Part shown: one piece after another, positions 19,226-46,442 of the stretch
Layout: each line of letters begins with the position of its first letter
How positions within the stretch are numbered: position 1 is the stretch's first letter
Assembly: GCA_016930515.1 (NCBI GenBank)
Contig: JAFGGO010000074.1
Coordinates: 1-64,000 of the forward strand
Direction: 5' to 3'
DNA length: 64,000 nucleotides
Source: Promethearchaeota archaeon
GTDB taxonomy: Archaea; Asgardarchaeota; Lokiarchaeia; Sigyniarchaeales; SOKP01
Notes under the pieces: model-generated
What the model saw: the letters and a program-made list of their open reading frames with translations, nothing else
Databases searched by the model: none
What the model was told of the DNA's origin: nothing
Made by a program: the position numbers and the translations under genes

Positions 19226-20740
19226 ATGAAAGATAAAATAGGAACCGTATTCAATTATAATCAATTACCGGATGTTTCGAGGTTTCCCTTCATAATTAGC
19301 CTTAAAAAAAAGCGAGGACTTGTAAGAAAAGGGCAATTTGTTTGTACTGAATCTGAGGAAGGTTTTTTAATGGGAATGGTTGAAAAGATCCTAATTTTAA
19401 ACGAATATTTTTCAGACGCCCTTACCATAAAGGCATATAACGACAATAATAATCCTAACATTTTAAAAGGTCTTTTTCCAAGCGAAGATTTTGAATTTTC
19501 CATAGCCATAGTTAAGAACCTTGGAATAATCTTGCTCGGAGATATTGATGATTCTAAAATTGAAAAAATAAATAGAATGACATATCCAGCTAGGCCAGGA
19601 GCGGAAGTATATTTAGTTAGTGATGAAATATTAAGCTCTTTTTTAGGATTTGATTTACAAAATGGTTTAAGAATTGGATCGTTGAAGGTATCGAATACTG
19701 AAGTAAAATTAAACCTAGATCGTTTATTAGGAAAGCATTTAGGAATTTTAGCAATCTCAGGTGCGGGAAAGAGTTATTTAACGTCCGTTCTTGTTGAGGA
19801 ATTGCTATCATCTAATAGTGGAGGATCTCCAGCGATCTTTTTAATTGATGTACACGGAGAATATACTTATTTAAAAGAAATCCCTGAATTAAAAGATAAA
19901 ATAATAGTACAAGATGCAAGTTTTTTCCAAATCGCAGTTCCAATCATGAATGCTCAATCTTTTAGAAAGGTTCAAAACGAAATATCTACAGTTCAGTTAA
20001 GAGAATTATCAAAACACATAAAAAAATTAAAAAAAACTAAAAAAAATTATTCCATTCCAGACATCATACAATATCTCGAAGAGGAACAAGAAGGCAATAA
20101 AAGCTCAAGGCAAGCTTTAATAGGATGGCTCGAAGAATTGCATTACCTACGATTATTTGGTCCGTCAGAAAACCCACTGTTGAAGAATATCATAAAGCCC
20201 CAAAAACTAATCATATTCAACCTTCAAAGCGAGATAAACATTAGGAAAAAACAAATAATGGTTGATTATATTTGTTCTCGCATGTTTTACATGAGACGTA
20301 TGAACGAAATTCCTCCATTTTTATTAATTATAGAAGAAGCACACCAATTTTCCCCAGAAGCAGCTCATTCAAAAGCGATTTCGAAATCAATAATTGAAAC
20401 TATAGCGCGAGAAGGGAGGAAATTTATGGCTTGTTTGTGCTTGATAAGTCAGAGACCCAAAAAATTAAGCACCACAGCTCTTTCCCAATTAAATTCCAAG
20501 ATGATATTAAATATCAAGAATCCTTACGACTTAAAACATCTCATGGAAAGTTCAGAAGCAATAACAAAAGATTATGCAGATATGATTTCGAGTTTAGGCG
20601 TGGGAGAGATGTTGCTGATGGGTAATGCCATTAATTATCCTGTTTTTATAAACATAAGACAAAGGTCATACCCCCCTAAAAATAAGGACATAAACCTATC
20701 ACAGGCTTGTCTTAATTGGCAAGAAAAGGAATTATTCTAG
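19226..20740 (+). CDS. HerA/FtsK-family ATPase (DUF87)
   Basis: HAS-barrel-like N-terminus, AISGAGKS, DVHGEY, EEAHQF, REGRKF, SQRP. Confidence 0.88.
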   Translation: MKDKIGTVFNYNQLPDVSRFPFIISLKKKRGLVRKGQFVCTESEEGFLMGMVEKILILNEYFSDALTIKAYNDNNNPNILKGLFPSEDFEFSIAIVKNLGIILLGDIDDSKIEKINRMTYPARPGAEVYLVSDEILSSFLGFDLQNGLRIGSLKVSNTEVKLNLDRLLGKHLGILAISGAGKSYLTSVLVEELLSSNSGGSPAIFLIDVHGEYTYLKEIPELKDKIIVQDASFFQIAVPIMNAQSFRKVQNEISTVQLRELSKHIKKLKKTKKNYSIPDIIQYLEEEQEGNKSSRQALIGWLEELHYLRLFGPSENPLLKNIIKPQKLIIFNLQSEINIRKKQIMVDYICSRMFYMRRMNEIPPFLLIIEEAHQFSPEAAHSKAISKSIIETIAREGRKFMACLCLISQRPKKLSTTALSQLNSKMILNIKNPYDLKHLMESSEAITKDYADMISSLGVGEMLLMGNAINYPVFINIRQRSYPPKNKDINLSQACLNWQEKELF

Positions 20741-21004
20741 CTCGTGCATTATTTCTTCTCTAATTTCCATATTGTTCTTATTAAGCACAATCATGTTTTT
20801 ATTCTTGCTAACTCGGAATACATTAATAATATTCCTACTTTCGAGTTTTAAGTAAATTTCTTCGAGCAGATAGGAATTTACATAAGGAAATTCTTTTTTA
20901 AGCAGTTCTTCTAATCTTTTATCCATAATTTCCCCCTTGTTTCGAATGAGCAGGTCAATAATTGTATTCACGACTGGTTTTTGATTCCAACGTTGCGATT
21001 CGAT
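20732..21004 (-). CDS. Small winged-helix-like protein, probable ATC start
   Basis: Frame extends upstream of GTG 20971 to ATC 21004, 6 nt after AGGTGA; helix-helix-helix-beta-hairpin pattern (LESRNIINV). Confidence 0.6.
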   Translation of the reverse strand: MESQRWNQKPVVNTIIDLLIRNKGEIMDKRLEELLKKEFPYVNSYLLEEIYLKLESRNIINVFRVSKNKNMIVLNKNNMEIREEIMHELE

Positions 21005-21096
21005 GATTAATCACCTAAAAATATGTATATATAATTATAAAAATAAGAAGTAGATCGTGATTTAAAGTATTTTAATCGTTATAAATTTGTGGTTTC

Positions 21097-23361
21097 TTAG
21101 ACAAATAATCCGTCTTGTTTTTCTTCACCTTCGATTCTTCGCCTCTTTAACTTTTCAGCAAAAGATTCGTACCATTTGATAACATCGGGAGTAATTGTTG
21201 GATGTATTTCCTCTCTTGCTTCAATGAAATGGTCGGGAGAAATCTTTCTTGCGCGAATGTTTTCTCGAAGTGCAATCATCGCAGCTTCGCGACACCATGT
21301 TTCAATATCTGCTCCTGAAAAACCATCACCAATCATTCCAGCTAAGGTTTCTACGGTGAGGTTTGATGCGAGTGGCATATTTTGGGTAAAAATCCTGAGA
21401 ATTTCGATCCTGCTTCGAACATCTGGTGCTGAGACAAGCAAGATCCTATCGATCCTTCCAGGCCTGATAAGGGCGGGATCTAAAATATCTGGTCGATTCG
21501 TTGCGGCAATAACCACAATGTCCCTTTTACTTTCTAAACCGTCCAATTCCGTTAGTAACTGAGATAATACCTTTTCCGTCACGCCCGAATCATTCGTAAC
21601 CCGTCCCCTGCTTGGTGCAATGGAATCAAACTCATCGAAAAATATTATACACGGAGAGGCCATTTTAGCTTTTCTAAACACTTCTCTTATGGCTTTTTCG
21701 CTTTCTCCTACCCATTTTGAAAGCAATTCGGGTCCTTTTATCGAAATGAAATTAGCCTTCGTTTCGGTAGCGACAGCTCTCGCCAGAAGCGTTTTTCCGC
21801 ATCCAGGCGGACCGTATAAAAGGATGCCTTTAGGGGGAGAGATGCCCATTCTCTTGAAGATCTTGGGATGAGATAAAGGCCAATCAACCGCTTCCATTAA
21901 TTTCTGTTTTAAAATATCCAAACCACCAATTCGTTCCCATGGAACATTTGGAATTTCAACGAATACTTCTCTTATTCCCGAAGGAAGTACTTCTTTCAAA
22001 GCTTCTTCAAAATCGTCCTTGAGCACTTCCATTTGTAAAAGCAATTCCTCTTCAATAACTTCGGATTCTAAATCTATTTGGGGCAAGTAGCGCCTCAACG
22101 CCGCCATTGCAGCTTCCCTACAAACGGCAGAAATGTCCGCTCCAACAAACCCATGTGTGATCCGAGCGAATTCATTAAGGGAAATTTTTTTATCAAGAGG
22201 CATATTTCTTGTATGAATCTGGAACACTTCTCTTCTTCCTTTTTCGTTAGGAACTTTTATTTCTATCTCTCTGTCAAACCTACCCGGACGTCTCAATGCC
22301 TCGTCCAAGCTATTAGGTCGATTTGTCGCACCAATAACTATCACGCGGCCCCTACTATGCAAGCCATCCATTAAAGCCAATAATTGTGCCACGACCCTTC
22401 TTTCTACCTCTCCCGTAACAGTTTCTCTTTTAGGTGCAATTGCGTCTATTTCGTCTATGAATATGATTGAGGGACTTTTTTCTTCTGCTTCAACGAAAAT
22501 CTTACGTAATTTTTTTTCTGATTCGCCGTAAAACTTACTCATTATTTCTGGACCGTTTATCGAAATGAAGTGAGCCTCACTTTCGTTTGCCACCGCTTTT
22601 GCTAAAAGTGTTTTTCCACAACCAGGAGGACCTCTCAATAAAACTCCTTTAGGAGGATCGATTCCAAGACGCTTAAATAGAGACGGGTGTCTAAGGGGGA
22701 GTTCTACCATTTCTCGAACGCGCTGAATTTCTCGATCTAGACCTCCCACGTCCTCGTAAGTCACATAATCTCCTTTAGGTTCTTCTTCAGGAGTTATGTT
22801 TTCGCTTATATGTATGACCGTGTCCTGTTTTATAACACAAATACCTCTTGGTTTAAGACTCTTGACCTTAAATAATATTTCTCGACTAATCCCAATTGAA
22901 ATGTGAATTATATCATCTATGGTTACGGGATAATTGATTAATTTCCTCCTAACGAATGTTTCAAATCGTGGGTTTGTTTTTATTTTAACCGTGGCAGGAG
23001 ATAATACAATATTCTGTGCTGATAATGCATTTACTTTTCTTATTTCGATAGTGTCATCTATACTGGTTCCCGTGTTTTTTCTCAATCGAGAATCAAAACG
23101 AACAATGCCTAAACCTTGATCTTGAGGATAACTAGGCCAAGCAATCCCAGCGCTTTCTTTCTTGCCCTTTATGGAAATGACATCACCTAATTGGATATTT
23201 AATTCTTCCATTATCTTAGAGTCAATCCTTACGATATTTCTTCCAATATCTCGTTCTTTTGCTTTTTGTACTCTTAGTGAAACCGATGGCCCGCTATTAT
23301 TTGATTCACTATTGTCTTTATTTCCGCTATTGTCATTATTATTGTTATTATTAGATGACAT
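21097..23361 (-). CDS. cdc48: CDC48/VCP (VAT) AAA+ ATPase
   Basis: Two AAA modules (GPPGCGKT twice, DEID/DEFD, RPGR twice) plus N-domain. Confidence 0.96.
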
Positions 23362-23445
23362 TTTTATTCACATTCTCTTTTTTGTATATGATTATTATTT
23401 AGTATTTATCATGTAAAAATTTTTCTATTTGGTTATTGTTCTATT

Positions 23446-24504
23446 TTATTTGTTTTTTTTAAAGAAATTATCCAATGAAACTTGTACTTTTGAGGAGTCC
23501 ATTTTTTTTAAACGCTCTAGCGCGTTCATTACTCGCTGTTTTGAAAAATTATGAGTCTCTATAAGGAGTTCCTCTACCTTTTCGTAATTAATTTTGTCCC
23601 ATTTAGGTTTTAAATAATCTTTTGAGACTTCAGGTTGAAGAAAAATCTGTTTTACTTTGTTTATTTGTTGAATATCAAGATCTATCTCACTTTTACCGAT
23701 CGAAACTTTATTTTTAATCAAATTTTCTATAGATCCATGTTTTTTTATCAAATCCAATGCCGTGTGCTGTCCAATACCTTTTATACCAGGAAAAAAATCT
23801 ACACCGATGAGAATTGCCATCTCGACTAACTGTTCGCGTGTTATATTAAACTTCTCAAGGACTTTTGCTAGAGTTATATATTCTATGTCTAAAGTAATCT
23901 TGGTATCCTTTACTTTCTTACTTCTACTTACAGCAAAATTACGGACTAATCTCTCACCACCAAACAAGAGTGTATCATAATCTTGTGAGGCAATGGCCCA
24001 AGCATCGTTATTTTCAACCAAATATGCCGATTGAGCTTCTCCTTCTGATAATGCTTGAATAATTGGAACGCCCAAATATTCGATTAATTTCTTGCTTTCG
24101 TTTAACATTTCTGAAGTTAATTTTGATGTTTGTTGGGCATATTTTCTTGCTTCTCTAAAGTCTTCTGTCTCTTGAGCAAGGACCATTTTTTTTTTTGCTT
24201 CTTCCTTTATTTCTTTTCTTTTTTGAATTGTATCTAATTTTAGTTCTGATGGTTTACCATCAAAAACATAAATTGGTTTAATATTGTGTTCGATAAAGTT
24301 AATTGTTCTATAAAAAATGCCCGAAAGATGAGAAGTCACATTTCCGCTGTAATCCTTTAAAGGAGTCCCGTCTCGTTGGCGAATAATCGCTAAGAATTGA
24401 TAAATCGTGTTAAAAGCGTCAATGGCTATGGCTTGATTGTGTAGATTTTCAAAACTAATAGTCCTTCTTGTTTCCTTTACGAGCTCGTTAATTTTTACGC
24501 CGAT
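23446..24504 (-). CDS. fen: Flap endonuclease 1 (352 aa, ATC start)
   Basis: Frame extends 55 codons above the ORF-track start giving (M)GVKINEL...IAIDAFNTIYQFLAIIRQRDGTPLKD..GNVTSHLSG; EGEAQ, SQDYD, GVDF, terminal PIP box QVSLDNFF. Confidence 0.95.
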   Translation of the reverse strand: MGVKINELVKETRRTISFENLHNQAIAIDAFNTIYQFLAIIRQRDGTPLKDYSGNVTSHLSGIFYRTINFIEHNIKPIYVFDGKPSELKLDTIQKRKEIKEEAKKKMVLAQETEDFREARKYAQQTSKLTSEMLNESKKLIEYLGVPIIQALSEGEAQSAYLVENNDAWAIASQDYDTLLFGGERLVRNFAVSRSKKVKDTKITLDIEYITLAKVLEKFNITREQLVEMAILIGVDFFPGIKGIGQHTALDLIKKHGSIENLIKNKVSIGKSEIDLDIQQINKVKQIFLQPEVSKDYLKPKWDKINYEKVEELLIETHNFSKQRVMNALERLKKMDSSKVQVSLDNFFKKNK

Positions 24505-24560
24505 TCATATCACCATTTTTTTCTTTATTAAACAAATAAGATCATTCCTATAAATTTTCA

Positions 24561-25103
24561 CTAATTTTTTTTTCTTCTAATTAGCTTTTGACCACATCGG
24601 TCACATAATCGGTCTAATTGGGTAGGGTCGTATAATTTCTTACAAAAAGGACAAAAGATTTCCCAAACTATTCCACCCGTGATGCCTTTTTTCCCAACAG
24701 GCGAGAATTCGAGTTTAAGTTGCAGGCATAGATTTTCCATTGAATAATCGTTCGTATAAACAACGATGTTTTCTTTGGTTTCCTCTTTTAATTCCAAGGC
24801 TAGAGTTATGACCTGTTTATCAGTTTTTGATAAAGCATTAAAATCTCCAGTTAATAAGGATTTTCTTTCAATTTCGTCGTAATATTTCTTAAGTGGCTTT
24901 TTAACGATCAATTTTTTTCTATCTATAGCCACTTGAATTCTCTGCAAAATCGTTCTGTTTTTCTCAGTATATTTTTCGACACTAATTTCCTTAATAACTC
25001 CAGGAGTGGTAAAGATTGTCCCTTTAATCAAATTGAAATCGATTCCTAATAAAAAAATATTTGTATCAAAAATAAGGATTTTACTTATTTGTCCCATAAT
25101 CAA
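24561..25103 (-). CDS. nob1: Nob1-like PIN endonuclease with zinc ribbon
   Basis: IFDTN, LSKTD, TNDYSMEN, CPFC...CDRCG. Confidence 0.88.
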   Translation of the reverse strand: MIMGQISKILIFDTNIFLLGIDFNLIKGTIFTTPGVIKEISVEKYTEKNRTILQRIQVAIDRKKLIVKKPLKKYYDEIERKSLLTGDFNALSKTDKQVITLALELKEETKENIVVYTNDYSMENLCLQLKLEFSPVGKKGITGGIVWEIFCPFCKKLYDPTQLDRLCDRCGQKLIRRKKN

Positions 25104-26014
25104 TACTCTTCTGGACTATCATCTCGAGGAATAGGTACTAAACCTATTATTTTTTTCCTCAGTCGTCTATAATAGCTTTCATTGAAACGTATAAATTTTA
25201 CTATTGAATTTGACTTACGAATCCTAATTATAGAATGAGGTTGTACATCTTTAAAGACTTTACGCCCATCGAGTAATATTCTTCCACTTAGGCGAGGTCT
25301 TAATAATTTTACATCAATTACGGTCTCCATTGGAAGTACGAGAGGTTTTAAACCCGAACGAGCAAAGGGATTTAACGGAACTATTTGCATTACATTTAAG
25401 GAAGGGTGAACAATCGCCCCTCCAGCACTTAAATTGTATGCGGTGGACCCCGTCGAAGTGGATACGATAACTCCATCTAAATAGCTCCTATTTAGGTGTA
25501 CTCCATTTATTTTTATGGCAATTTGCAATACCTTGGAATTTTTTGAGGATACGATCAAAACTTCATTTAGGCAATTACCTAGTTTTATTTCTTCTTTCTT
25601 CTCGTTTATGAGAGAAGTTGATATTTTTGAGCAGGTTTCAACAGTATAATTTCCATTTAAAATTTTATCAACATCGTCGAAAATCATCCTCCCGTTTGAT
25701 TCGTCCAAGAATCCCACGGATCCTATGTTTATTCCTAAAATAGGCGGAGGATCTGCCTGATCAACGCTCCCCGCAACTCTTAAGAGAGTTCCATCGCCTC
25801 CAATTGAAAGTACGAATTTTGTATTTTTGGAACTCATTTCGCTTAAATCTCTTGCACTTGTTGGAAGAATTTTTGGAGCAATTCTGGTTTCCAAATACAC
25901 GACCTGAGCTCTTTTTTTCACGAGAAACTCAAAGAGCTTTTTAGATAAAGCAAATGCCTTTTCGGAGTCCATTCTACAAGCTAAGGCAATTGATTTTTCT
26001 TCCATAAAAATCAA
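25100..26014 (-). CDS. nadK: NAD kinase
   Basis: GGDGTLL, GSVGFL, LNE, DG..VST.TGSTAYNLSAGG. Confidence 0.95.
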   Translation of the reverse strand: MIFMEEKSIALACRMDSEKAFALSKKLFEFLVKKRAQVVYLETRIAPKILPTSARDLSEMSSKNTKFVLSIGGDGTLLRVAGSVDQADPPPILGINIGSVGFLDESNGRMIFDDVDKILNGNYTVETCSKISTSLINEKKEEIKLGNCLNEVLIVSSKNSKVLQIAIKINGVHLNRSYLDGVIVSTSTGSTAYNLSAGGAIVHPSLNVMQIVPLNPFARSGLKPLVLPMETVIDVKLLRPRLSGRILLDGRKVFKDVQPHSIIRIRKSNSIVKFIRFNESYYRRLRKKIIGLVPIPRDDSPEEY

Positions 26015-26079
26015 AATTTTAATATAAATATTGTTAAATTATCAATTTATTGGATTAATCTAAAAAAAATTAAAAGTAA

Positions 26080-26508
26080 TTAGTTTAGGATGACTCTATT
26101 TATCAACGTCTTACCAGCAATTTCCCATATCTCTACTTGAGCCGTTGACAATTTCGCTGGTTCTGATTGTAATTCCTTGAGCTTGTTGACCAATTCCTCT
26201 TCAGTAGGCCATTCCACATCGATGGATTCATAAGATTCTAAATTCATGATGTTAATTGCATTCTCTTCGATAAAATTTATCTGAGCTGTACCTTTCAGAA
26301 TTTCAGGAACTTCAGTCAAGTGTCCCGAAGGAATAGTAAGAGATCTCTTGTTTCCATCGAACAATCCGACACAAACAACTCGTACTTTCGCATGACCATG
26401 CTTGCCACTTTTTGACCTTTCTGTTGATTTGATAACACATGGTTCGTTATCCACCATAATGTATTGTCCCGTTTTTAATTTTTGGACTTCGACTCTTTTA
26501 ATTGAAAA
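26080..26508 (-). CDS. eif5a: Translation factor aIF5A/eIF5A (non-canonical start, TTT 26508 or ATT 26502)
   Basis: Hypusination motif SKSGKHGHAK; conserved-looking N-terminus SIKRVEVQKLKTGQYI lies upstream of the first ATG. Confidence 0.92.
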   Translation of the reverse strand, partial: FSIKRVEVQKLKTGQYIMVDNEPCVIKSTERSKSGKHGHAKVRVVCVGLFDGNKRSLTIPSGHLTEVPEILKGTAQINFIEENAINIMNLESYESIDVEWPTEEELVNKLKELQSEPAKLSTAQVEIWEIAGKTLINRVILN

Positions 26509-26732
26509 AGCTTTCTCACCTTTCGTTCATTAATATTGTTTATAACAATTAATATTATCCCTAAAATTTATTTCTTGCTAATTAATGTAATATTTTCAAA
26601 TAAATTCATCAAGAATTTTTTTTAAATCATACACCTTAATATAGCTTTTTTTAAATTAAATACCACATTACTATTTTTAAGGATTTTTTAAAAAATTTTT
26701 AAAAAGAAACCACGACTCGTTGATGATATAAC

Positions 26733-28115
26733 ATGAAAGAATTCGGTAGAAAGCTCGAAGACCTGATGAGAAAGATTCGAAAACTACCTTCCATAAATAA
26801 AGAAGAAATAATGGCCATAATCCAAGATCTCCAAAGAGCAATGCTTGAAGCAGATGTTAAGGTGGATTTAGTCTTCGAGATGACAGAAAACATCAAAAAA
26901 GCAGCAATGAATACCACACTCCAAAAAGCAAAACGCAAGGACTTCGTCATCAAGCTTGTCCACGATGAGTTGATACGCGTTTTAGGGGGGAAGAAAGCAC
27001 CAATAAGGATCAAGCCTGGTAAAAAGAATGTTATATTATTAGTTGGAATTCAAGGTTCTGGAAAAACAACAACAGTTGGGAAACTCGCCTACCATTTTAA
27101 AAGCAAGGGATTCAAGGTTGCAGCATTAACCACTGATACTTGGCGACCAGGTGCTTACGACCAGTTAGTACAACTCACGAAACAAATTGGTGTAGAAACT
27201 TATGGCAATCCTAATGAAAATAATGCACTAAAAATCGCCGTGAAAGAAACAAAAAAGGCCATCAACGATGGAAACGATATTGTCATTGTAGATACAGCTG
27301 GCAGGCACAAAGAGGAGAAAGAACTCATCGAAGAGATGAAAAAGATCGAAGCTGCCTTGAAACCAAATGAAGTAATACTCGTCATTGACGGAACATTGGG
27401 ACAACAAGCGTTTAACCAAGCCCAAGAATTTGCTAATGCAACCAATATCGGTTCTATTATAGTAACCAAACTCGATGGTACTGCTAAAGGGGGGGGTGCC
27501 CTTTCTGCTTGTGCTGCGACGAAAACTTTCATAAGATTTACGGGAATGGGCGAGAAAATAGAGGAATTAGAGGAATTTGACCCAACAGGGTTCGTGGGAA
27601 GCTTATTAGGTATTGCAAATCTGGAGGCGCTCGTTAAAAAGGTTCAGGATTCAGAAGCGATGGCAGATCCAGAGCTTCAAAAAAGAATGCTTCACGGGAA
27701 GTTTACGCTTGACGACCTTTGCACTCTACTCAAGAACATGAAAAAATTAGGGAAGATGAAAAATATTCTTGGAATGATGGGTGCGGGCAACATTCCCGAT
27801 GCTCTTAAAGATGATGCGGAAAAAAATATTCAAAAATGGGAAGTCATTTTAAATTCACTCACACAACAAGAAAAGGATAATCCCTTAATTATCAAAAAGG
27901 AAAGAAAAAGAAGAATACACAGGGGAGCAGGAGTAGAATACGCAGAAATCAATCGAATGCTAGATCAATACAAACAAATGAAAAAAATGATGAAATCTTT
28001 TGGTAAAATGGCGAAGAAAGGTAAGGGAGGAAAAGGTCCATTTCCAGGTAAGGGACTTCCGCCAGGTTTTGGAGGAAAAGGCTTAGGAGATCTATTTAAA
28101 AAATTTGGTGGATGA
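26733..28115 (+). CDS. srp54: Signal recognition particle protein SRP54
   Basis: GIQGSGKTT, DTAGRH, TKLDGTAKGGG, M domain. Confidence 0.96.
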   Translation: MKEFGRKLEDLMRKIRKLPSINKEEIMAIIQDLQRAMLEADVKVDLVFEMTENIKKAAMNTTLQKAKRKDFVIKLVHDELIRVLGGKKAPIRIKPGKKNVILLVGIQGSGKTTTVGKLAYHFKSKGFKVAALTTDTWRPGAYDQLVQLTKQIGVETYGNPNENNALKIAVKETKKAINDGNDIVIVDTAGRHKEEKELIEEMKKIEAALKPNEVILVIDGTLGQQAFNQAQEFANATNIGSIIVTKLDGTAKGGGALSACAATKTFIRFTGMGEKIEELEEFDPTGFVGSLLGIANLEALVKKVQDSEAMADPELQKRMLHGKFTLDDLCTLLKNMKKLGKMKNILGMMGAGNIPDALKDDAEKNIQKWEVILNSLTQQEKDNPLIIKKERKRRIHRGAGVEYAEINRMLDQYKQMKKMMKSFGKMAKKGKGGKGPFPGKGLPPGFGGKGLGDLFKKFGG

Positions 28116-28140
28116 TAATAACGAATTTTCAAATTTCTCG

Positions 28141-30193: not shown

Positions 30194-30333
30194 TAAAATT
30201 TTGACTATTTGAAAGAAAAAAGGGAGGAATATGCATATCATTGATAGATTCTTAATACATTTTTAGTAGAAAGATTCATTAGAATTAGTTGAATAGATCA
30301 TATCAATAATAATTACTTCAAAACCTACTAATC

Positions 30334-30969: not shown

Positions 30970-31026
30970 CCTTTAGTATTTTTCCTTGGTCTTCGAAAGT
31001 AAAAAATAAAAAATAGGATTTTGTTA

Positions 31027-35682: not shown

Positions 35683-35741
35683 AATAAATCCTTATTTTAT
35701 TATTATAGTTGATTTATAATGATAAAATTTATATATAAATT

Positions 35742-36836: not shown

Positions 36837-36959
36837 TCTTACAAGATCCTTCTAAATAGAATTTAATCACTAGTTGAGCAGAGTTTAGTTTTGTATTTAA
36901 ATACAAGGAGAATGAAGAATTATGAAAAATTTTTTCTTTCAAAAAGAAATAATGTAATT

Positions 36960-37634: not shown

Positions 37635-37663
37635 GAGCAAACCTTCATCATATTTTGATTCTT

Positions 37664-38365
37664 TCAGACATTTCGCAACTTGTTCGATCCACAGCGAGGG
37701 CAGATAATGTTTCCCAATCCTACAATGGAATAATTTTTTAATGCCTTAACCTCATAATTACATTTAGAACAACGAAGATTAGCAGTAGGGAACCATTGTC
37801 CCTTGATATTAGGCATTTTTTTAAGAGAGTCCATTAAGAGATCTTTTTTGCTCTTCTCAAATTGAAATACTTGCTTTTCTTCAACCAATGATTTACCTTT
37901 TGGTCCTAGAATCATAAGAAATTTTATCCTATTAGGAGCATTTAAAAGGGAAAGAGTTTTGACAATTGCTTTTTTTTCATGAACCGCAAAAAGTTTGGCG
38001 AGTTCTGGAGGTGCAAGAGCAACCAATACTCCTTGAGAGATGTTCTTAGTTGATTCCGTTTTTTGAAATAAGAATTGAAAGCTTCTTCCCTCAATATCAA
38101 TAGCCCAAATAAAACTAAAAGAGGAAATATCATAATCCTCGTTGTTCGGTCCAATTATGCGTTTAATCGTTAAATTCCATGTATAATGCGATTGTTTGTA
38201 AGCGTTTGAAACAAGATCGTCAAAAAAGTTTTTTTCAATAACGGGAAAGGAGTTAAAAACGCTTTTTAAGGACAATAAGGTGACTTGGGTTAACTGATCA
38301 GATTTGAGACCGTCCCAAGGCGTGAGCGTGAATACATGAAAATATTGATTTGACACAATAACCAT
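37664..38365 (-). CDS. Hypothetical protein with C-terminal zinc ribbon
   Basis: CSKC...CPRCG at C-terminus. Confidence 0.65.
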   Translation of the reverse strand: MVIVSNQYFHVFTLTPWDGLKSDQLTQVTLLSLKSVFNSFPVIEKNFFDDLVSNAYKQSHYTWNLTIKRIIGPNNEDYDISSFSFIWAIDIEGRSFQFLFQKTESTKNISQGVLVALAPPELAKLFAVHEKKAIVKTLSLLNAPNRIKFLMILGPKGKSLVEEKQVFQFEKSKKDLLMDSLKKMPNIKGQWFPTANLRCSKCNYEVKALKNYSIVGLGNIICPRCGSNKLRNV

Positions 38366-38454
38366 CTAATTGTTTTATAAAAATTAAAATTTACGATAAA
38401 CATAAGGTGATCCAATGATAAAATTTTATCTTGTTAAATAATACGAGTTGAGAA

Positions 38455-39696
38455 TTGTTGTTGGATTTCTTATTAGATGAAAAAAATCTGTTATTACGAG
38501 ACGAGGTTCGTACTTTCGTTAAGGAAGACATTCCTCACAGCTTGCTCAAACAAATGGATAAAGACGAGATCCAGTATCCTCAAGATTTTATTCGAGCTTT
38601 AGCAAAACGAGGTTTGATTGGTCTTCGCTTCCCACGGAAATACGGGGGTAGAGGACTTAACTGGGAATCTGAAGTGGTTGCTCTCGAAGAAATTGGCGTT
38701 TTAGGCATGGCATTAGGGTGTCTTTTTAGCCTTCCAAGCATTTGTGGGGAAGCTTTACATCATTTTGGAACGGAAAAGCAAAAAGAAAAATATCTGAAAC
38801 CATTATGCAACGGAAAGATTTTTGCAGCAGAGGCTCTTACGGAACCTCGAGGCGGATCTGATTTTTTTGGAGCAACAACAACCGCTGTACGAAAGGGAGA
38901 TTCCTATATCTTAAATGGGGAAAAAAGATTCGTAGTGGGGGCAGAAGGAGCCGATTTTTTTCTTGTTTACGCAAAAACCGATGAAAAAGCAAGACCACAC
39001 GAGTCAATTAGCCTTTTTATCGTTGAAAAAAGTGAAAATGTTAGCACTGAATATCTTTATGGACTCATGGGAACTCGAGGGGGTGGTGCTGGAAGGTTGA
39101 AATTTAATAATGTTGAAGTCCCCTCTGAAAATGTTATTCTTGAGGAGGGTGCGGGAGGGAGGATCTTCTACCAAATGATGGTTCCGGAGCGAATGACAAG
39201 CGCTGCGGGCATCCTTGGTACAGCTCGGGCGTGTTTGCGGATTGCTACAAAATATAGTTCAAAACGAAAAGCTTTCGGTCAAATCATAAAAAACTTTCAA
39301 GCAGTTAATTTTGCTATTGCTGATAGCATAACTTTATTAGATGCTGCCAGATCTTTGGTATTAAACACGGCAAGATTAATTGACACAGGAGCCCCACCAC
39401 AATTACAAAGAAGGATGGTCTCAGAATCAAAAAAATTTGCGACGGAAGCTTGTTGGAAGATAGTAAACAAGTCGATGCAGGTAATGGGAGGAATTGGGTA
39501 TACTACAGTATATCCCATAGAACGTCTTCTTAGAGACGCACGACTTTCGATGATATGGACAGGAACATCCGAGATAATGTCTGCTATCATACAAAAAGAA
39601 TATTACGACGAAATCTTGAGCGAAAAATGGGTTGGACGAGATATAGAAAAGGATGCAATAGACGCTGATGCCGAAGAAGAAAAGAACTATGGGTAA
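38455..39696 (+). CDS. Acyl-CoA dehydrogenase
   Basis: [31 protein letters not shown]...IWTGTSEI. Confidence 0.93.
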
Positions 39697-39797
39697 ATCT
39701 CTTTAATTTGAAACCGAATACCATTATTTCATAGATGAAAAATAATTAAGATTTTCGTATTAATTATATTATTATAAAAAGAAAAAGAATTAAAAAA

Positions 39798-41010
39798 CTA
39801 AGATTTTTTTTTTGATAAATATCTTATTTTGGTCATTAAGTCGCGCAGCTCAATGAGATCGCTATTTCTCTCAATATATTTCTTATTTGCACCCTCGGCT
39901 AATGGAAGAGAAATTATTTTATTACACTTGAGTGACACCATCTTTCCGAAATCTTCTTCTATGACTAATTTCATTGCTGCCAATCCAAATCTTAGCCCTA
40001 AAATTCTATCAAATGCGTTTGGGTGTCCTGCCCTCATCGTATGTCCCAATACGACGCTACGACACTCGTACTCGACATTATTTTTAGAAAATTCTTCCTT
40101 AAGATCTTTCCTTAAATTCAACTCTTCAATTAAAATCTGGGACATATTCAGGGCGGGCAAGACGGGATTTCCAAAAGCGTCTTTTGGCAGTTTATCAATT
40201 GTTTCTTGAGAAATGGTTTTAAAATCGTTTTTAAGCGATTCTGGATCGGGATATGCACCCTCCGAACATGCAATGATATGATATTTGTATCCTGCGTTTG
40301 CTCGCTTCTTGAGCACATCAAGTACATCTCTTTCCAAGGAAAAGGGGGTTTCAGGAATCAATATAATATCTGCACCGGTAGATAGACCACTATACAGGGT
40401 TAGAAAACCTGCGTCCCTCCCCATAATCTCTACGACAAATACTCGTTGATGTGAGCGGGCGGTTGTTGTCAGGTTATCCATGGAGTCAGATGCTAATTGT
40501 GTTCCACTCCAAAACCCGAATGTAAATTCGGTTCCTGCCAAATCGTTATCAATGGTTTTTGGACATCCTATAACTTTGGCACCGGTATATTTATGCATTG
40601 CATCCGCAACTCCGTTAGTATCGTCGCCCCCTATAACAATGAGGGCGTCTATACCGATTTCATCGAATTTATTTACCATCTCCTTTGCGACTTTTTCTTT
40701 AATCCTTTCTTTTTCCTCGTTTGATTTTGCCTTACTTACTTCTTTAAAAGGATTGGTCCTACTAGTGTATAATAAAGTTCCACCAATGGTATGTAAATCG
40801 TCGTGTTCTGCAATATTCAAGGGAATTGTTTCATTTTCCAAGAATCCCTTCCATCCCCTTAAAATACCCACGCATTCAATTCCAGCATCAAAAGCTTTTA
40901 ACATGATCCCATAAAGTACGGAATTGAGACCAGGGCAGTGTGCGGCAGCCGAGGAAAATCTCGAGCAAGACTCCGCCACCCGTTAGGATCCCTACTTTTT
41001 TAACAGCTAT
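39798..41010 (-). CDS. pfp: PPi-dependent 6-phosphofructokinase (PfkA family), two exons: 41010-40971 joined to 40939-39798, 393 aa
   Basis: Joined N-terminus (M)AVKKVGILTGGGDCPGLNSV; GGT.L.TSR, GGDDT (Asp, PPi type), PKTIDND, EIMGRDAG, LGHTMR. Confidence 0.9.
40940..40970 (-). other. Candidate BHB intron in pfk mRNA (31 nt)
   Basis: Insert TCTTGCTCGAGATTTTCCTCGGCTGCCGCAC splits Asp codon G/AC; central helix GCGG/CCGC, bulges AG^T and AC^A. Confidence 0.88.
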
Positions 41011-41126
41011 TTTTCATCGCCTTGTTTATTTTTGTTTCAATATTGACTTATTATAAAAATATCTATAAGAAAAATATTATTAATTAGCAAACTAATAAAT
41101 AAAATCTATAATACTATGATAAATCT

Positions 41127-41723
41127 TTATGAGATGTGAAAATCTTTTTCATTATTAGAAGCCTCGATGTTTTTCGGTTCAAATTCATAGGGGGTATCCT
41201 CTTGAGGGACGATGTAGCTTCCTCCTGAAAGATCTGTTATTTTGAGAGTGAATGGAAATTTTCCTTCCAGAGCTTTTTGTAAGTTAAGGATAATAAAATC
41301 TATTTCAGGGATTTGAGGGTCATCTTTCTGGAGATTATTTCTATATATTTTAACCGCACTTTCGAACCGCCTTAAAACCCCTTCTACATTTGTAAAATAG
41401 AAATCAGCATTGGGACCAGGCTCCATTACGAGCTCAAACTCGGGAATTTCAATTTTAGCAGTAGGTGCGCGATACAGTTTTGATTTTAAATCGTTTTCTT
41501 TATTAATTTTCATAGAAATTATTCCAGGTTTCATCTTTGAAGAAACGGGTACTACATCTTTACTAATATAACCACAATCACTGCATTCATATTTTAGAAT
41601 AAGAATTTGATCTCCATCGTGCGAATCGTAAATAGTTTTTTGGATTTTAATAACTCCACTTCGACAGGAGGGGCAATTGAACGAAAAATCGTCTTCCTCT
41701 CTCTCCTTGACATGATGCGACAT
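41127..41723 (-). CDS. ZPR1 zinc-finger domain protein
   Basis: CPSC...CSDCGY, IEIPE, PGP, TNVEGVL.RF, D.SGGS. Confidence 0.9.
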   Translation of the reverse strand: MSHHVKEREEDDFSFNCPSCRSGVIKIQKTIYDSHDGDQILILKYECSDCGYISKDVVPVSSKMKPGIISMKINKENDLKSKLYRAPTAKIEIPEFELVMEPGPNADFYFTNVEGVLRRFESAVKIYRNNLQKDDPQIPEIDFIILNLQKALEGKFPFTLKITDLSGGSYIVPQEDTPYEFEPKNIEASNNEKDFHIS

Positions 41724-41958
41724 TGTTATAGGAATAAATTATTGAATCTTGAAATTATTGACTATTTTTTAAAACAGAAAAATTTTTAAGATTTCTGACT
41801 TTTATCATACTAAATATATATTTATTACTTTATTAACAATACAAAGTTAGAATCATGCTACTCAGAAAAGAAAACGACTCAAAAATTCAACTTAACTTTG
41901 TATTAAGTACCATTACTGTGTTATTTTTGGTATTATTAGTAGTATTAATTTTATAATA

Positions 41959-41996
41959 GCAACCAATAAAATCTACTCTCTTTTTTTATTGGTTGC
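41959..41996. promoter_or_regulatory. 13-bp perfect inverted repeat upstream of the por operon
   Basis: GCAACCAATAAAA-N12-TTTTATTGGTTGC; function inferred from position only. Confidence 0.45.
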
Positions 41997-42031
41997 ATTG
42001 GTAATAATATGAAAAATCAAAAAGGAAAAAG

Positions 42032-42619
42032 TTGGAAAAATTGACGGAAAGCGAAAAGATAATTGAAATCTTTTTTCACGGCCGAGGAGGACAAACCGCT
42101 ATAACGGCAAGTTCTCTTTTAGCCGAGATGGCTTATGAAAAGGGATTTAAGGACACGATTGCCATACCAATTATTGGTGCCGAAAGACGAGGCGCTCCAA
42201 TAATGGCTTTCACCAAGATCTCCAAAAATAAGCAAATTAAAACATACGATGGAGTTCGGGACCCAGACTTCATGATAATTTTTGATACTTCCTTGTTGGA
42301 CATTCCTAAAGTAAAAGAAACGATTAAAGAAGGGGTAACCATTATCGTAAATAGTCCTAAACCCATAAATATGGAAGGACTACCCTCAAACATCAAGATT
42401 TTTATTGTTGATGCCACGGGAATCTGTATTAACAGGGGATTCATGCATTCGAGCGGACCAATCCTAAACATACCAATGTTGGGTGCTTTTGGAAAGGTTT
42501 CAGGACATTACGACCTCAATACCGTAGAAACTGTGTTGAAAAGAGAATTTGGTAATTCAAAACTCGAAAAGAATATGAATGTGGCAAGAGACGCATACGA
42601 ATCCGTAAAGGAGGTCTAA
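42032..42619 (+). CDS. porG: Pyruvate/2-oxoacid:ferredoxin oxidoreductase gamma subunit
   Basis: HGRGGQ, GAERRGAP, VDAT, NIPMLGA. Confidence 0.9.
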   Translation: MEKLTESEKIIEIFFHGRGGQTAITASSLLAEMAYEKGFKDTIAIPIIGAERRGAPIMAFTKISKNKQIKTYDGVRDPDFMIIFDTSLLDIPKVKETIKEGVTIIVNSPKPINMEGLPSNIKIFIVDATGICINRGFMHSSGPILNIPMLGAFGKVSGHYDLNTVETVLKREFGNSKLEKNMNVARDAYESVKEV

Positions 42620-42623
42620 ATGA

Positions 42624-42974
42624 ATGTCGGATACTGAAAAATGGAAAGACATAAATAAATCCAGGGAAAAAAGACCCAAGGTTCAAGAATATAAGAACTG
42701 GGAAGAATTGTCGCCCATTCCGATATCCCTACCCATTAAAGGGTCGATGGGTACAACTGGAGATTGGAGAACGTTCAGACCAGTGATAGATCAAGAAAAC
42801 TGCAATAAGTGCGGAATTTGTTGGATGTATTGTCCGGAAGGAACGATTATTAAAAATGAGGATGGTTCCTTTCGAATAGACCTCGTTTATTGCAAGGGAT
42901 GTGGTATTTGCGCAGAAGAATGTCCAACGAAAAACATAGAAATGATAAGAGAGAGTGATGTTTCTCATGATTAA
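42624..42974 (+). CDS. porD: Pyruvate/2-oxoacid:ferredoxin oxidoreductase delta subunit
   Basis: TGDWRTFRP, two CxxCxxCxxxCP motifs. Confidence 0.92.
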   Translation: MSDTEKWKDINKSREKRPKVQEYKNWEELSPIPISLPIKGSMGTTGDWRTFRPVIDQENCNKCGICWMYCPEGTIIKNEDGSFRIDLVYCKGCGICAEECPTKNIEMIRESDVSHD

Positions 42975-44223
42975 AACGCAAAAAGAAATCGAACAAGAAT
43001 TGGAAACGATGATTATAAAAGGAAACGAAGCTGCCGCCTACGCTGCAAAATCTGCAAGAGTGCAAGTAATTAGCGCTTATCCAATTACACCACAAACAAC
43101 TGTCGTCGAAAAATTATCCGAATTTGTGGATCACGGATTAATGCCTGGTACGCAATATATCAAGGTCGAGAGCGAGCATAGTGTCATGGCGTCTGTTGTT
43201 GGAGCTAGCATGGCAGGTACCAGGACATTTACAGCAACATCTGGACAGGGATTGTTCTACATGAATGAAATGCTTCACTGGGCTGCGGGAACGCGCCTTC
43301 CAATAGTCACAGCAATAGCTTCAAGAGGTCCGGCGCCTCCGTGGAATATCTGGGCAGACTTCACGGATGTAATTTCTCAAAGAGATACGGGCTGGATGAG
43401 CTCGTTCTGTGCGAGTCATCAAGAAATTTACGACGAGATACTCATGTCGTACAAATTATGTGAAGATTACGAGGTTTTACTTCCAAAGTTCGTTGCATAT
43501 GGGGGATTTATTTTATCTCATACTTCAAAACCAGTAATTATTGAAGAGCAATCAAAAGTCGATTCTTACTTACCACCACTCCCCGACGAGAAAGGTTGGC
43601 CTCACATATTCGTTGATCCTGAGAGACCAATGATGTTTGGAAATTTGATAATGCCTTCGGGTTTCTATTCGGAGTTTAGAATGAAAATCCATGACACGAT
43701 GATAAAAGCGAAAGAAAAGATTAAGATCGCAGCAAATGAGTTCGAAAAAGTTTTTGGTAGGAGTTACGGAAATGGTTTGATCGAAGAATATAAAATGGAC
43801 GATGCCGAAGTAGGAATGCTTATTTACGGTGATTTAGCCCTTCAAATGGAAGAGGCCGTTGATTTAGTTAGAGAAGAGGGATATAAGGTCGGTATGGTAA
43901 AGTTAAGGCATTTCAGACCGTTCCCAACTGAAGACATTATTGAATCTGCAAAGAAAGTAAGCGTACTTGGAGTAATGGATCGAGCTACTGCATTTGGATC
44001 GCCTACTGGAGGTCCCGTGAGTAGCGAAGTAAAAACAACACTTCACGGTACGGATGTGAACACGATCATTCTTCCAATGATTGGAGGTTTAGGGGGCAGG
44101 GAAGTCACTCTTGAACAACAAAAGGAGCAATTGAAAATCCTCGTTTCCATAAAAGAAACTGGAGAATTACCAAAAGATTTGCTCCACGGCACTCTTTGGC
44201 ACGGGAAATTGGAGGTGGAATAA
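42967..44223 (+). CDS. porA: Pyruvate/2-oxoacid:ferredoxin oxidoreductase alpha subunit
   Basis: GNEA, YPITPQT, VESEHS, TATSGQGL, RPFP. Confidence 0.93.
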   Translation: MIKTQKEIEQELETMIIKGNEAAAYAAKSARVQVISAYPITPQTTVVEKLSEFVDHGLMPGTQYIKVESEHSVMASVVGASMAGTRTFTATSGQGLFYMNEMLHWAAGTRLPIVTAIASRGPAPPWNIWADFTDVISQRDTGWMSSFCASHQEIYDEILMSYKLCEDYEVLLPKFVAYGGFILSHTSKPVIIEEQSKVDSYLPPLPDEKGWPHIFVDPERPMMFGNLIMPSGFYSEFRMKIHDTMIKAKEKIKIAANEFEKVFGRSYGNGLIEEYKMDDAEVGMLIYGDLALQMEEAVDLVREEGYKVGMVKLRHFRPFPTEDIIESAKKVSVLGVMDRATAFGSPTGGPVSSEVKTTLHGTDVNTIILPMIGGLGGREVTLEQQKEQLKILVSIKETGELPKDLLHGTLWHGKLEVE

Positions 44224-44224
44224 A

Positions 44225-45166
44225 TTGGCAAAAATCAAAGAAGTAATAGAAGACGAAATTGGATGTCAAGAATGGTTTCTCCCAGGAAATTCGTGTTGTG
44301 CGGGATGCGGCTTAGAAATTGCGTTAAGATGGGCAATGAAAGCGCTTGGACCTAATACAGCACTTGTTACACCCGCATCTTGCCTTAATGTCGTTATCGG
44401 GCTATGGCCTAAAACAGCACCAAATTTCCCGTTCACCAATATGGCTTTTGCTGCGGGAGCTGCTGCCGCAACGGGCATCTCTGAGGCCTTCAAGGCAAAA
44501 GCAGAGAGGTTTCCAGGCAAGGTTTGGGAAAAAATGACAACACTCGTGTTTGCTGGTGATGGAGGTACAACAGATATCGGAATTCAAGCACTTAGCGGTG
44601 CGGCAGAGAGAAATTCAAACATCATTTACACTTGCTACGATAATGAAGCTTACATGAACACTGGAATTCAGAGGTCATCGAGCACACCACACGGAGCTAA
44701 GACTACAACAACAGTGTTAGGAAAGGAAAGATATAAGAAAAACCTCCCAGCAATCATGGCTGCTCACGAAATCCCATATGTGGCAACATGTTCAATAAGC
44801 GAACCTCTTGATATTTATGAAAAATACAAGAAGGCAAAATCGATAGAAGGTTGTAAGTATATTCATATTTTAGCACCTTGTCCTCCCGGTTGGAATTATC
44901 CCAGCGAGAAAACCGTTGAGCTTGCGAGGTTGGCGGTAAAGACAGGAGTTTGGCCTTTATACGAGATCGAAAATGGGGTCATGACACTGCATAAAAAAAG
45001 TAAATCTTTGCTCAATCCCGAGAAACGATTGCCATTAATTGATTATCTTTCCAAACAGAAAAGATTTGCTGGCATGTCTGAAAAAACGATGATTGAGTTG
45101 CAAGAACACATCGATCGCGATTGGAAGGCAATTGCTAACAAGCTGAAATCCCAAGAAGAAGATTAA
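44225..45166 (+). CDS. porB: Pyruvate/2-oxoacid:ferredoxin oxidoreductase beta subunit
   Basis: CAGCG, GDGGTTDIG, DNEAYMNTGIQRS, PCPPGW. Confidence 0.93.
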   Translation: MAKIKEVIEDEIGCQEWFLPGNSCCAGCGLEIALRWAMKALGPNTALVTPASCLNVVIGLWPKTAPNFPFTNMAFAAGAAAATGISEAFKAKAERFPGKVWEKMTTLVFAGDGGTTDIGIQALSGAAERNSNIIYTCYDNEAYMNTGIQRSSSTPHGAKTTTTVLGKERYKKNLPAIMAAHEIPYVATCSISEPLDIYEKYKKAKSIEGCKYIHILAPCPPGWNYPSEKTVELARLAVKTGVWPLYEIENGVMTLHKKSKSLLNPEKRLPLIDYLSKQKRFAGMSEKTMIELQEHIDRDWKAIANKLKSQEED

Positions 45167-45220
45167 TTTTTAACCTTTTCTTTTATTTTAATAACCATTA
45201 TTATCTTAAAGATAACGACT

Positions 45221-45877
45221 ATGGGTCTCCTGATAAAATTTTCGAAAAATAAAGAGCAAGAACTCGAAACATACATTGATTTAATCGTGGATTACATATT
45301 TCAAGGAAAATTAATTGCTTTTCCAACGAATTCCGTATACGGAATTGGTGGTGATCCTTTCAATGTCGATCTCATAAACAGGATATATGATATTAAATAT
45401 AGAGATCCAAACAAAGGATTTTTACTATTAGTTAGCGATTTAGAGGAAGCTACTAAAATCGCAATATTCAACGATAATGCAAGAAGGATTGCAAAAAAAT
45501 TCTGGCCAGGCCAATTAACTATCATTTTAGAGAAAAATAAAGGCACTTCCTTACCAGCTGAACTCAACGCTTTTCAAGAGACAATTGGGTTAAGGGTTCC
45601 TGAAAACGAGACCATCCTAAGAATCCTTCAGGAGCTGAAAAAAAGGGGAAAACTTGGAGCAATTATAGGTACGTCTGCTAATTTTTCTGGAGAACCTCCT
45701 TCGATTAGCGGAACGGAAGTATCGAAAGCTTTTATGGGAGCAATTGATTTAATCATTGATTCAGGGAAAACCAAATCCAAGATACCAACAACTATTGTTG
45801 ATCTATCGACTAGCTCGGTAAAGATTTTACGTGCTGGCAAGATTTCAGAAGAAGAAATAAGAAAAGCCTTAGATTAA
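45221..45877 (+). CDS. Threonylcarbamoyl-AMP synthase (TsaC/YrdC, no SUA5 C-domain)
   Basis: FPT.SVYGIG, K.R, WPGQLT, GLRVP, TSANFSG, PTTIVD. Confidence 0.9.
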   Translation: MGLLIKFSKNKEQELETYIDLIVDYIFQGKLIAFPTNSVYGIGGDPFNVDLINRIYDIKYRDPNKGFLLLVSDLEEATKIAIFNDNARRIAKKFWPGQLTIILEKNKGTSLPAELNAFQETIGLRVPENETILRILQELKKRGKLGAIIGTSANFSGEPPSISGTEVSKAFMGAIDLIIDSGKTKSKIPTTIVDLSTSSVKILRAGKISEEEIRKALD

Positions 45878-45911
45878 TATTAATTTGTATATTATAAATT
45901 GGTGAAAGAAA

Positions 45912-46442
45912 ATTAATAACTTCAATCTCTTGATATCAACATCAAGGCACAACGAATCAAACGCAAAAGCAGAATTATGGTTTTCACTACTCATGTGTGG
46001 AGATAAATATCCAATAATCTCGAAACTCGAATATTCTGGTCTAATAGCTGCTTTAACAACAATAGATTCCAAGGAGGTGGTTCGTAATTTAGGAAATATT
46101 TTAAATTCTGATCCTATTTTTTTTCAATATATCTTGAAAATCATTCCTATTGATTACATTACGGAAACAGATATTAGCTCCATCACTTCAATAATATCGA
46201 AAAAATACGAAAAATTCATTCCCAGCGAAGAATCATTCAAAATTGAGTTGAATCGAAGGAAAAGTGATATCATTGAGAGACAGAGTTTCATTGACGCTAT
46301 TGCGAGAATAATCAATCGGAGTGTTAATCTCGATGCTCCCGATGTTATTGTTAGGTTTGAAATTTTAGGAAACACCTGTGCTATATCGTTTTTAAAGCGT
46401 AGCGATATTTTAGAAATCGTTAATACCTTTAATCCGTTTTAA
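45912..46442 (+). CDS. THUMP-domain RNA-binding protein, probable ATT start
   Basis: (M)NNFNLLISTSRHNE; LKIIPID, SFKI...RR, VNLDAPDV; ATT 6 nt after GGTGA. Confidence 0.85.
   Translation: MNNFNLLISTSRHNESNAKAELWFSLLMCGDKYPIISKLEYSGLIAALTTIDSKEVVRNLGNILNSDPIFFQYILKIIPIDYITETDISSITSIISKKYEKFIPSEESFKIELNRRKSDIIERQSFIDAIARIINRSVNLDAPDVIVRFEILGNTCAISFLKRSDILEIVNTFNPF

Follow-up and report, generated by a model that had tools for sequence, protein, structure and literature searches.

Near-cognate codons behind strong Shine-Dalgarno sequences as probable translation starts in a family of Asgard archaea

Where does translation begin in a gene whose conserved coding sequence extends upstream of its first ATG, GTG or TTG? 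Reviews give AUG, GUG and UUG as the archaeal initiation codons (PMC7531240, PMC4705826). A first-pass annotation of 64,000 nt of DNA from a Promethearchaeota archaeon (assembly GCA_016930515.1, contig JAFGGO010000074.1, positions 1 to 64,000; called the window in the following) had raised this question for five genes within 26 kb: fen, which encodes flap endonuclease 1, pfk, the aIF5A gene, a THUMP-domain gene and a wHTH-like gene. In each of them, an unusual codon had been noticed a few nucleotides behind a motif resembling a Shine-Dalgarno (SD) sequence. The window is the start of contig C126 of a metagenome-assembled genome (MAG; G000) of 4.0 Mb in 190 contigs with ~35% G+C and a contamination of about 5%. 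We conclude that such genes are very probably translated from the near-cognate codons AUU, AUA and AUC, and elsewhere in the genome also from ACG, with the SD sequence directing the ribosome to them. The aIF5A gene is an exception with regard to its start codon and is discussed separately.

All five odd codons are present behind SD-like pentamers at the positions and with the spacings that had been claimed. ATG, GTG and TTG are referred to as canonical codons.

20732..21004, minus strand: wHTH-like gene of 90 codons; proposed start ATC at 21004..21002, first canonical codon 11 codons on
21011..21016, minus strand: SD AGGTGA of the wHTH-like gene, 6 nt (TTAATC) ahead of ATC; complements the 16S rRNA 3' end GGATCACCTCCT of the relative G012
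23446..24504, minus strand: fen (flap endonuclease 1), 352 codons; proposed start ATC at 24504..24502
24510..24514, minus strand: SD GGTGA(T) of fen, 5 nt (TATGA) ahead of ATC
26080..26526, minus strand: open frame of aIF5A; candidate starts ACG at 26526..26524, TTT at 26508..26506 and ATT at 26502..26500
26516..26520, minus strand: SD GGTGA of aIF5A, 7 nt (GAAAGCT) ahead of TTT
40971..41010, minus strand: putative exon 1 of pfk, ATA AVKKVGILTGGG plus G; proposed start ATA at 41010..41008
41017..41022, minus strand: SD-like AGGCGA of pfk, one mismatch to AGGTGA, 6 nt (TGAAAA) ahead of ATA
40940..40970, minus strand: frame-shifting insert of 31 nt in pfk, between exon 1 and the main open reading frame (ORF)
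39798..40939, minus strand: putative exon 2 of pfk (PF00365), stop codon included
45912..46442, plus strand: THUMP-domain gene; proposed start ATT at 45912..45914
45901..45905, plus strand: SD GGTGA of the THUMP-domain gene, 6 nt (AAGAAA) ahead of ATT

Between the upstream stop codon and the conserved N-terminus, none of the five genes contains an in-frame ATG, GTG or TTG. The canonical sites that had been named for comparison were also confirmed, both of them minus-strand sites (GGTGA-GAAA-ATG near 49600 and GTGTGA-ATTATT-ATG near 51647). Initiation at the proposed codons would result in the predicted N-termini (M)GVKINELVK for fen, (M)NNFNLLISTSR for the THUMP-domain protein, (M)AVKKVGILTGGGDCPGLN for pfk and (M)ESQRWNQKPVVN for the wHTH-like protein.

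We aligned these genes with orthologues taken from 30 related genomes of the same genus, family and order. At fen, pfk, the THUMP-domain gene and the wHTH-like gene, the odd codon coincides with Met1 of the orthologues (up to 23 related genomes), which bears out the earlier claim that initiation outside AUG, GUG and UUG is recurrent. The ATC of fen directly follows a TGA and is replaced by ATG in 14 relatives and by TTG in two. Positions 2-338 of the profile TIGR03674 (fen_arch) match residues 2-348, so that Met1 falls on ATC. The first canonical codon of fen is a GTG at codon 56, within XPG_N, and a start at this codon would remove 55 residues of that domain. The same SD spacing occurs in G009 (GGTGA-TCATC-ATG), and most of the relatives with ATG have no GGTG SD. 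In pfk, the ATA is located six codons 5' of the Gly in GILTGGG, where ATG is found in 11 relatives and TTG in one; a TGA lies two codons 5' of it, and the sole other sense codon after that TGA is AAA. From the aligned sequences, the pattern at fen and pfk looks like a turnover between ATG and ATH (ATA, ATC or ATT) where a strong SD is present.

The ATT of the THUMP-domain gene adjoins the conserved motif (K/N)NFNLL, and the next canonical codon, a TTG six codons on, corresponds to the second conserved Leu of this motif. Relatives have ATG (13), TTG (4), GTG (1), ACG (1) and ATT or ATA (4) at the position of the ATT. The ACG is that of G017; it immediately follows a TAA, with GGAGGAG ahead of it. 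In G016 the codon is ATT, so that this gene exhibits several types of weak starts across genera. In 17 family relatives of the wHTH-like gene, the codon preceding E-S-x-R-W-N-Q-K-P is ATC in eight, ATA in two and ATG or TTG in seven. The ATC or ATA follows (G)GTGA at 6 nt in every case, and two relatives have a TAA or TAG two codons ahead of it. This protein has no family match in Pfam or NCBIfam, and 'wHTH' is an unconfirmed label of the earlier reader.

If SD pairing selects such codons, they should be overrepresented at a defined distance behind SD motifs throughout the genome. We called 2,964 upstream-bounded genes in G000 with a codon-usage model and tallied the in-frame codons ahead of the first ATG, GTG or TTG, minus the three codons adjoining that canonical codon; ATT, ATA, ATC and ACG were counted as near-cognate. 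Behind GGTG at a distance of 6-8 nt, 48 near-cognate codons were found (24 ATT, 10 ACG, 8 ATA and 6 ATC) vs 12.9 expected (p = 4e-18). The same motif precedes a canonical codon in 164 genes. Near-cognate starts thus account for about a fifth of the starts led by GGTG and for 1.2-1.6% of the genes as a lower bound. By this strict criterion (GGTG at 6-8 nt and a near-cognate codon at least four codons ahead of the first canonical one), fen and the THUMP-domain gene are the only matches within the window.

Behind GGTGA at 5-7 nt, near-cognate codons made up 29 of 44 pre-canonical codons, whereas the background share of these four codons is 14%. The cleanest control is the comparison of spacings of 0, 3, 6, 9 and 12 nt, all of which place the TGA of GGTGA in frame: 20 of 24 codons were near-cognate at 6 nt, compared with 7 of 89 at the other four distances (Fisher p = 9e-13). 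A count free of gene calls gave 29/87 vs 30/333 (p = 1e-7). As both this count and the comparison of spacings are significant, the observation is not due to chance. An excess is also seen in 848 kb without the contig of the window (10 observed, 3.0 expected). The earlier proposal that the position of the start is set by the SD is supported by an unbiased scan in which every 4-mer was considered at every spacing, with GGTG at 7 nt (28/44) and GTGA at 6 nt coming out on top, and by a sharp peak of ATT behind GGTGA with 13 cases at 6 nt and 0-2 at each other distance; canonical ATG peaks at 5-9 nt. None of 19 permutations of GGTGA gave a similar excess, save the overlapping AGGTG (12/37) and, to a smaller extent, GGGAT (8/31). 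TTT, AAG and AGG were not enriched behind the motif, and CTG was found three times behind GGTG with 0.4 expected.

In nine of ten further genes analyzed with Pfam, the domain starts ahead of the first canonical codon. The genes include the following, with the number of the first domain residue and the position of the first canonical codon:

XPD helicase: DEAD from residue 15; first canonical codon at +33
Cytidylyltransferase: domain from residue 7; first canonical codon at +13
Radical SAM protein: domain from residue 19; first canonical codon at +53
Phosphodiesterase (contig C168): domain from residue 9; first canonical codon at +76
Rubrerythrin (C15): domain from residue 7; first canonical codon at +101
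P-type ATPase: domain from residue 14; first canonical codon at +20
Zn-ribbon protein (C54): domain from residue 3; first canonical codon at +99
aIF1/SUI1: domain from residue 29; first canonical codon at +54 from the proposed ATT
Arf/Roc GTPase, the lone exception and uninformative: domain from residue 125; first canonical codon at +37

Standard annotation would thus truncate such proteins, as had been predicted. About 35-50 genes genome-wide appear to be affected, and the 'many proteins' of the first-pass annotation amount to ~1-2% by the strict count and perhaps to a few percent.

The trait is not confined to G000. The same tally was made for four related genomes:

G012, same family, other genus: 400 kb, 7 observed, 1.4 expected, p = 1e-4
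G024, sister family, genus g17: 663 kb, 5 observed, 1.6 expected, p = 0.013
G026, sister family, genus g14, complete genome: first 800 kb, 2 observed, 0.9 expected, not significant
G027, family f4, 54% G+C: first 400 kb, 1 observed, 1.2 expected, not significant

The sequence searched contained 48 genes with a canonical start behind an SD in G026 and 49 in G027. In G024, the additional 263 kb within the 663 kb gave no further matches. The assumption of a lineage trait agrees with these tallies, which are positive in the same family, weak in G024 and negative in G026 and G027: near-cognate initiation is pronounced in this family and does not extend throughout the order. Independent MAGs also have near-cognate codons at the same genes, namely in 10 relatives at the wHTH-like gene, in five at aIF5A and in 12 at aIF1.

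Several other explanations for the five genes have to be considered. Translation could start at the first downstream ATG, GTG or TTG, with the upstream open frame serving as an untranslated leader, since every gene has a canonical codon further on and in the THUMP-domain and wHTH-like genes it is just six and 11 codons away. However, the upstream codons are conserved as protein: fen matches fen_arch from position 2 and XPG_N, pfk contains GILTGGG, and the TTG of the THUMP-domain gene is a conserved Leu inside NFNLL. Nine of the ten other genes would lose the N-termini of their domains, and the enrichment at SD spacing would be left unexplained, which makes a downstream start highly improbable. 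The odd codons might also stem from mistakes in sequencing or assembly, from a mosaic of strains or from newly arisen mutations that have turned the genes into pseudogenes. This would suit a MAG of 190 contigs with some contamination and the occurrence of the fen ATC and the pfk ATA in G000 alone among the relatives searched. Yet errors would not recur in independent assemblies at the wHTH-like gene, aIF5A and aIF1, nor would they prefer one-mismatch codons exactly 6 nt after GGTGA; moreover, the ORFs are all intact and the genes belong to the core. We therefore regard this explanation as very unlikely.

Initiation at an out-of-frame ATG or GTG followed by a frameshift, or reinitiation after the in-frame TGA, would make use of ATG codons that are indeed present 4-7 nt upstream at fen and aIF5A (ATGA directly upstream) and pfk (ATG-AAAA), where they open mini-ORFs of 4-6 codons. 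GGTGA itself contains a GTG, and ATGGTGA is found at 8 of 29 near-cognate sites. This share does not differ significantly from the 10 of 73 at canonical SD sites (p = 0.15), and most sites have no upstream ATG, so that we rejected upstream mini-ORFs and frameshifting as a general feature. Coupling of termination and reinitiation was rejected as well: the end of an upstream gene on the same strand is no more than 15 nt away for 4 of 48 near-cognate starts vs 20 of 139 canonical ones, and the boundary codon in relatives is TAA or TAG rather than TGA. With these data, frameshifting or reinitiation has a very low probability. Even less can be said for a read-through or recoding of TGA with the true start at a canonical codon 5' of it. 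An in-frame ATG GTG ATA precedes the TGA of fen, but the resulting M-V-I-X extension would displace the N-terminus of FEN-1, which is M-G in 16 relatives. Coding is not conserved across the stop, the frame of aIF5A contains a tandem TAA TGA, and the orthologous boundaries are TAA or TAG. Read-through is hence barely conceivable.

SD-directed initiation at near-cognate codons remains our favored explanation, although a number of points count against it. The fen ATC and the pfk ATA were found in G000 only among the assemblies searched, and each of them, taken singly, may be due to an erroneous base or to a mutation that recently disabled the gene. The SD of pfk carries a mismatch. The gene calls are based on our own codon-usage model, not on a validated gene finder. 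G000 lacks a 16S rRNA gene in its assembly, so the anti-SD was read from the relative G012. First residues and exact start positions are predicted from DNA. Finally, the TTT of aIF5A has two mismatches to AUG, hence is not near-cognate, and is not enriched behind GGTGA genome-wide.

For these last two reasons TTT, the start originally proposed for aIF5A, was not upheld even though it aligns with Met1, and the start is left between ACG 26526, TTT 26508 and ATT 26502. The first canonical codon is codon 24 of the open frame. Position 3 of the IF-5A profile matches ORF residue 9, which places Met1 on the TTT, 7 nt behind GGTGA, and 18 relatives with ATG, TTG or ATT directly before S-I-R-R put Met1 at the same position. 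TTT is common to G000 and its congener G003. The latter has an in-frame ATG six codons upstream of TTT that aligns with the ACG of G000. Around this ATG/ACG, 4 of 10 nt differ between the two genomes, while GGTGAGAAAGCTTTTTCAATT is identical and the sequence is almost identical from GGTGAG onward. Because the flanks diverge and the stretch from the SD onward is conserved, the ATG/ACG region seems to be non-coding. The possibility that translation of aIF5A starts at ACG or at ATT, the latter 13 nt behind the SD, instead of TTT has in our estimation an even chance. ACG corresponds in the alignment to the in-frame ATG of G003 and belongs to a start type that is 10-fold enriched genome-wide, unlike TTT. 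On the other hand, no SD precedes the ACG, its surroundings vary between the congeners, unlike GGTGAGAAAGCTTTTTCAATT, and thereby resemble non-coding sequence 5' of a conserved SD, and both the profile and the 18 relatives put Met1 at the TTT position. At the family start position, relatives from five genera have an ATT (G017, G010, G008, G013 and G011; loci L025, L030, L032, L033 and L034) with the SD at an aligned distance of 5-6 nt, and in G017 and G008 an in-frame canonical alternative is absent.

How could a near-cognate codon be selected? Our model assumes that a strong SD, (A)GGUGA(U), would pair with the 3' end of the 16S rRNA and thereby set the small subunit with its P site 5-7 nt downstream, most often at 6 nt. 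The ordinary initiator tRNA with the anticodon CAU would then pair with a codon that is one position off AUG, and the resulting protein would presumably still begin with Met. With a strong and optimally spaced SD, the 30S subunit may stay in place for the time that Met-tRNAi needs to accept the one-mismatch codon. The SDs of near-cognate starts complement GGATCACCTCCT, with the same spacing as those of canonical starts. Alterations of the machinery were looked for in three places. By eye, we saw no changes of the aIF1 protein peculiar to the near-cognate-rich family in the conserved segments RKWG(R/K) and ASGGT. The aIF1 proteins from near-cognate-rich and near-cognate-poor lineages have the conserved loops in common. 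The 16S rRNA 3' end of G012, from the same family, is the standard archaeal one. The sole candidate for an initiator tRNA, C31:4088-4185 (+), is ordinary, with CAU, A1:U72 and a GGG/CCC anticodon stem. Its gene has a 22-nt intron after position 37 and was missed by ARAGORN, which reported 21 tRNAs only, 14 with introns, for the whole MAG. An ordinary machinery with compensation by the SD is the simplest reading. Still, the data fit a relaxed stringency and an ordinary stringency offset by strong SDs alike. The relaxed start-codon use that had been postulated for this lineage holds for one-mismatch codons only (ATT > ACG, ATA, ATC).

Near-cognate starts may be subject to control by aIF1, whose own gene belongs to them. 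The aIF1/SUI1 gene of G000, C31:21080-21415 (+) (L069:501-836), lacks canonical codons over a stretch of 57 codons. The proposed start codon, before K-D-D-D-I-C-P, is an ATT that 11 family relatives share, with ATC in one more, and a TAG lies two codons upstream in three relatives. Outside the family it is ATA in both g17 genomes and canonical TTG or ATG in g14, g20, g21, f3 and f4. An excess of near-cognate codons was observed in G000 (aIF1 start ATT), G012 (ATA or an in-frame GTG) and weakly in G024 (ATA), and was absent in G026 (TTG) and G027, where aIF1 was not found. This is a hint that the excess tracks the aIF1 start codon, from five genomes that are too few and too closely related. Apart from this, aIF1 and aIF5A are two translation factors that repeatedly have weak starts. 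As the aIF1 of Sulfolobus discriminates against AUU in vitro, blocking 30S complexes on AUU mRNA (PMC4705826, PMC6237735), the level of aIF1 should gate near-cognate starts and would set how often they fire. By analogy with infC of E. coli or with eukaryotic eIF1, the AUU of aIF1 could allow feedback on its own synthesis. A tentative and rather unlikely extension is that this AUU and some 50-100 SD-led AUU, AUA, AUC and ACG genes, including aIF5A, fen, XPD and pfk, form a translational regulon, the output of which would go up as aIF1 activity falls.

The pfk gene has a second peculiarity. The earlier claim of in-frame coding sequence upstream of its first canonical codon was correct regarding the ATA and the SD-like site; in the DNA, however, the ATA is out of frame with the long ORF owing to the intervening 31-nt insert. 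Removal of 40970..40940 restores the frame and the motif GILTGGG-D-CPGLNS, GILTGGGDCPGLNS. The insert is found with the same size and at the same site in G010, G006 and G015, is one base longer in G008 and is absent in 18 other relatives. We consider it a candidate mRNA intron. In Crenarchaeota, the cbf5 pre-mRNA contains a bulge-helix-bulge intron. The pfk insert is similarly short, breaks the frame inside a coding motif and is common to several genera. It resides in a different gene and lineage, though, and is known from the restoration of the frame, without a distinctive fold: in the minimum free energy structure, the 3' junction lies in a 3-nt bulge, and the energy is no better than that of shuffled sequences (z = -0.43).

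Some side observations concern other genes. In G000, 15 called genes have at least 75 codons ahead of any ATG, GTG or TTG, whereas a simple composition estimate predicts ~0.2. C101:44074-45615, C177:6243-6683, C5:3923-4372 and C172:14645-15295 belong to these, and SD-led ATH starts among them are those of the rubrerythrin (C15), the Zn-ribbon protein (C54) and the phosphodiesterase (C168). The remaining ones could be further split genes, contain introns or have weak starts without an SD. In the window, a CDC48/VCP-like AAA ATPase is encoded at 21097..23361 on the minus strand, in which an Asn/Ser-rich low-complexity tail precedes the conserved N-domain.

Initiation at near-cognate codons has precedents in other systems. 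E. coli infC, which encodes IF3, has an AUU start behind an SD and is subject to translational autocontrol (Butler et al. 1987, cited in PMC4705826). The genes described here share with it the one-mismatch AUU behind an SD and, in our model, the reading by the initiator tRNA and the dependence on a fidelity factor, with a conserved AUU on the aIF1 gene. In E. coli, however, these are a handful of special cases, whereas here ~1 in 5 GGTG-led starts is concerned, housekeeping genes included, and aIF1 belongs to the eIF1 family and is unrelated to IF3; feedback here would be an analogy. In eukaryotes, near-cognate initiation at CUG, ACG, GUG and AUU is under the control of eIF1 and eIF5 levels, and eIF1 autoregulates via an AUG in poor context (PMC4705826; refs 54-56 of PMC6237735). 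In both cases a SUI1-family protein polices codon-anticodon pairing, the codons are of the one-mismatch class and the mRNA of the factor has a weak start. The differences are SD pairing here and scanning with Kozak context there, and AUU, AUA, AUC and ACG rather than CUG.

Within the archaea, ribosome profiling of Haloferax volcanii assigned ~30% of putative alternative initiation sites to near-cognate codons; these were disregarded by the authors as potential false positives (PMC7261190). As in our case, an archaeon has initiation signals at near-cognate codons; there they mark alternative or internal sites, whereas here they are the sole possible start of conserved full-length proteins. For the Asgard tubulin atubA, the annotated protein lacks its first beta-strand, and an ATT upstream, called a rare start codon, at a plausible distance from a ribosome binding site, restores it (PMC13394414). 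This resembles the genes described here, but it is a single gene from another Asgard family in a methods-section remark, with no genome-wide or comparative analysis. In the literature we found no systematic report of AUH (AUA, AUC or AUU) or ACG starts in Asgard or other archaea, the atubA anecdote being the only mention.

Gene finders restricted to ATG, GTG and TTG cut or mis-start at least 1% of the proteins in these Asgard archaea. FEN-1, XPD, aIF1, aIF5A and phosphofructokinase are among them, and the errors spread to databases, structure predictions and expression constructs. If the proposed regulon exists, it would be a prokaryotic SD-based counterpart, and possibly a forerunner, of the start-codon stringency controlled by eIF1 in eukaryotes. 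Since AUU, AUA, AUC and ACG make up ~1/5 of the starts behind a strong SD and the aIF1 gene keeps its AUU, it becomes testable whether the archaeal relatives of eukaryotes already had a tunable start-codon stringency of the kind that characterizes eukaryotic translational control through eIF1.

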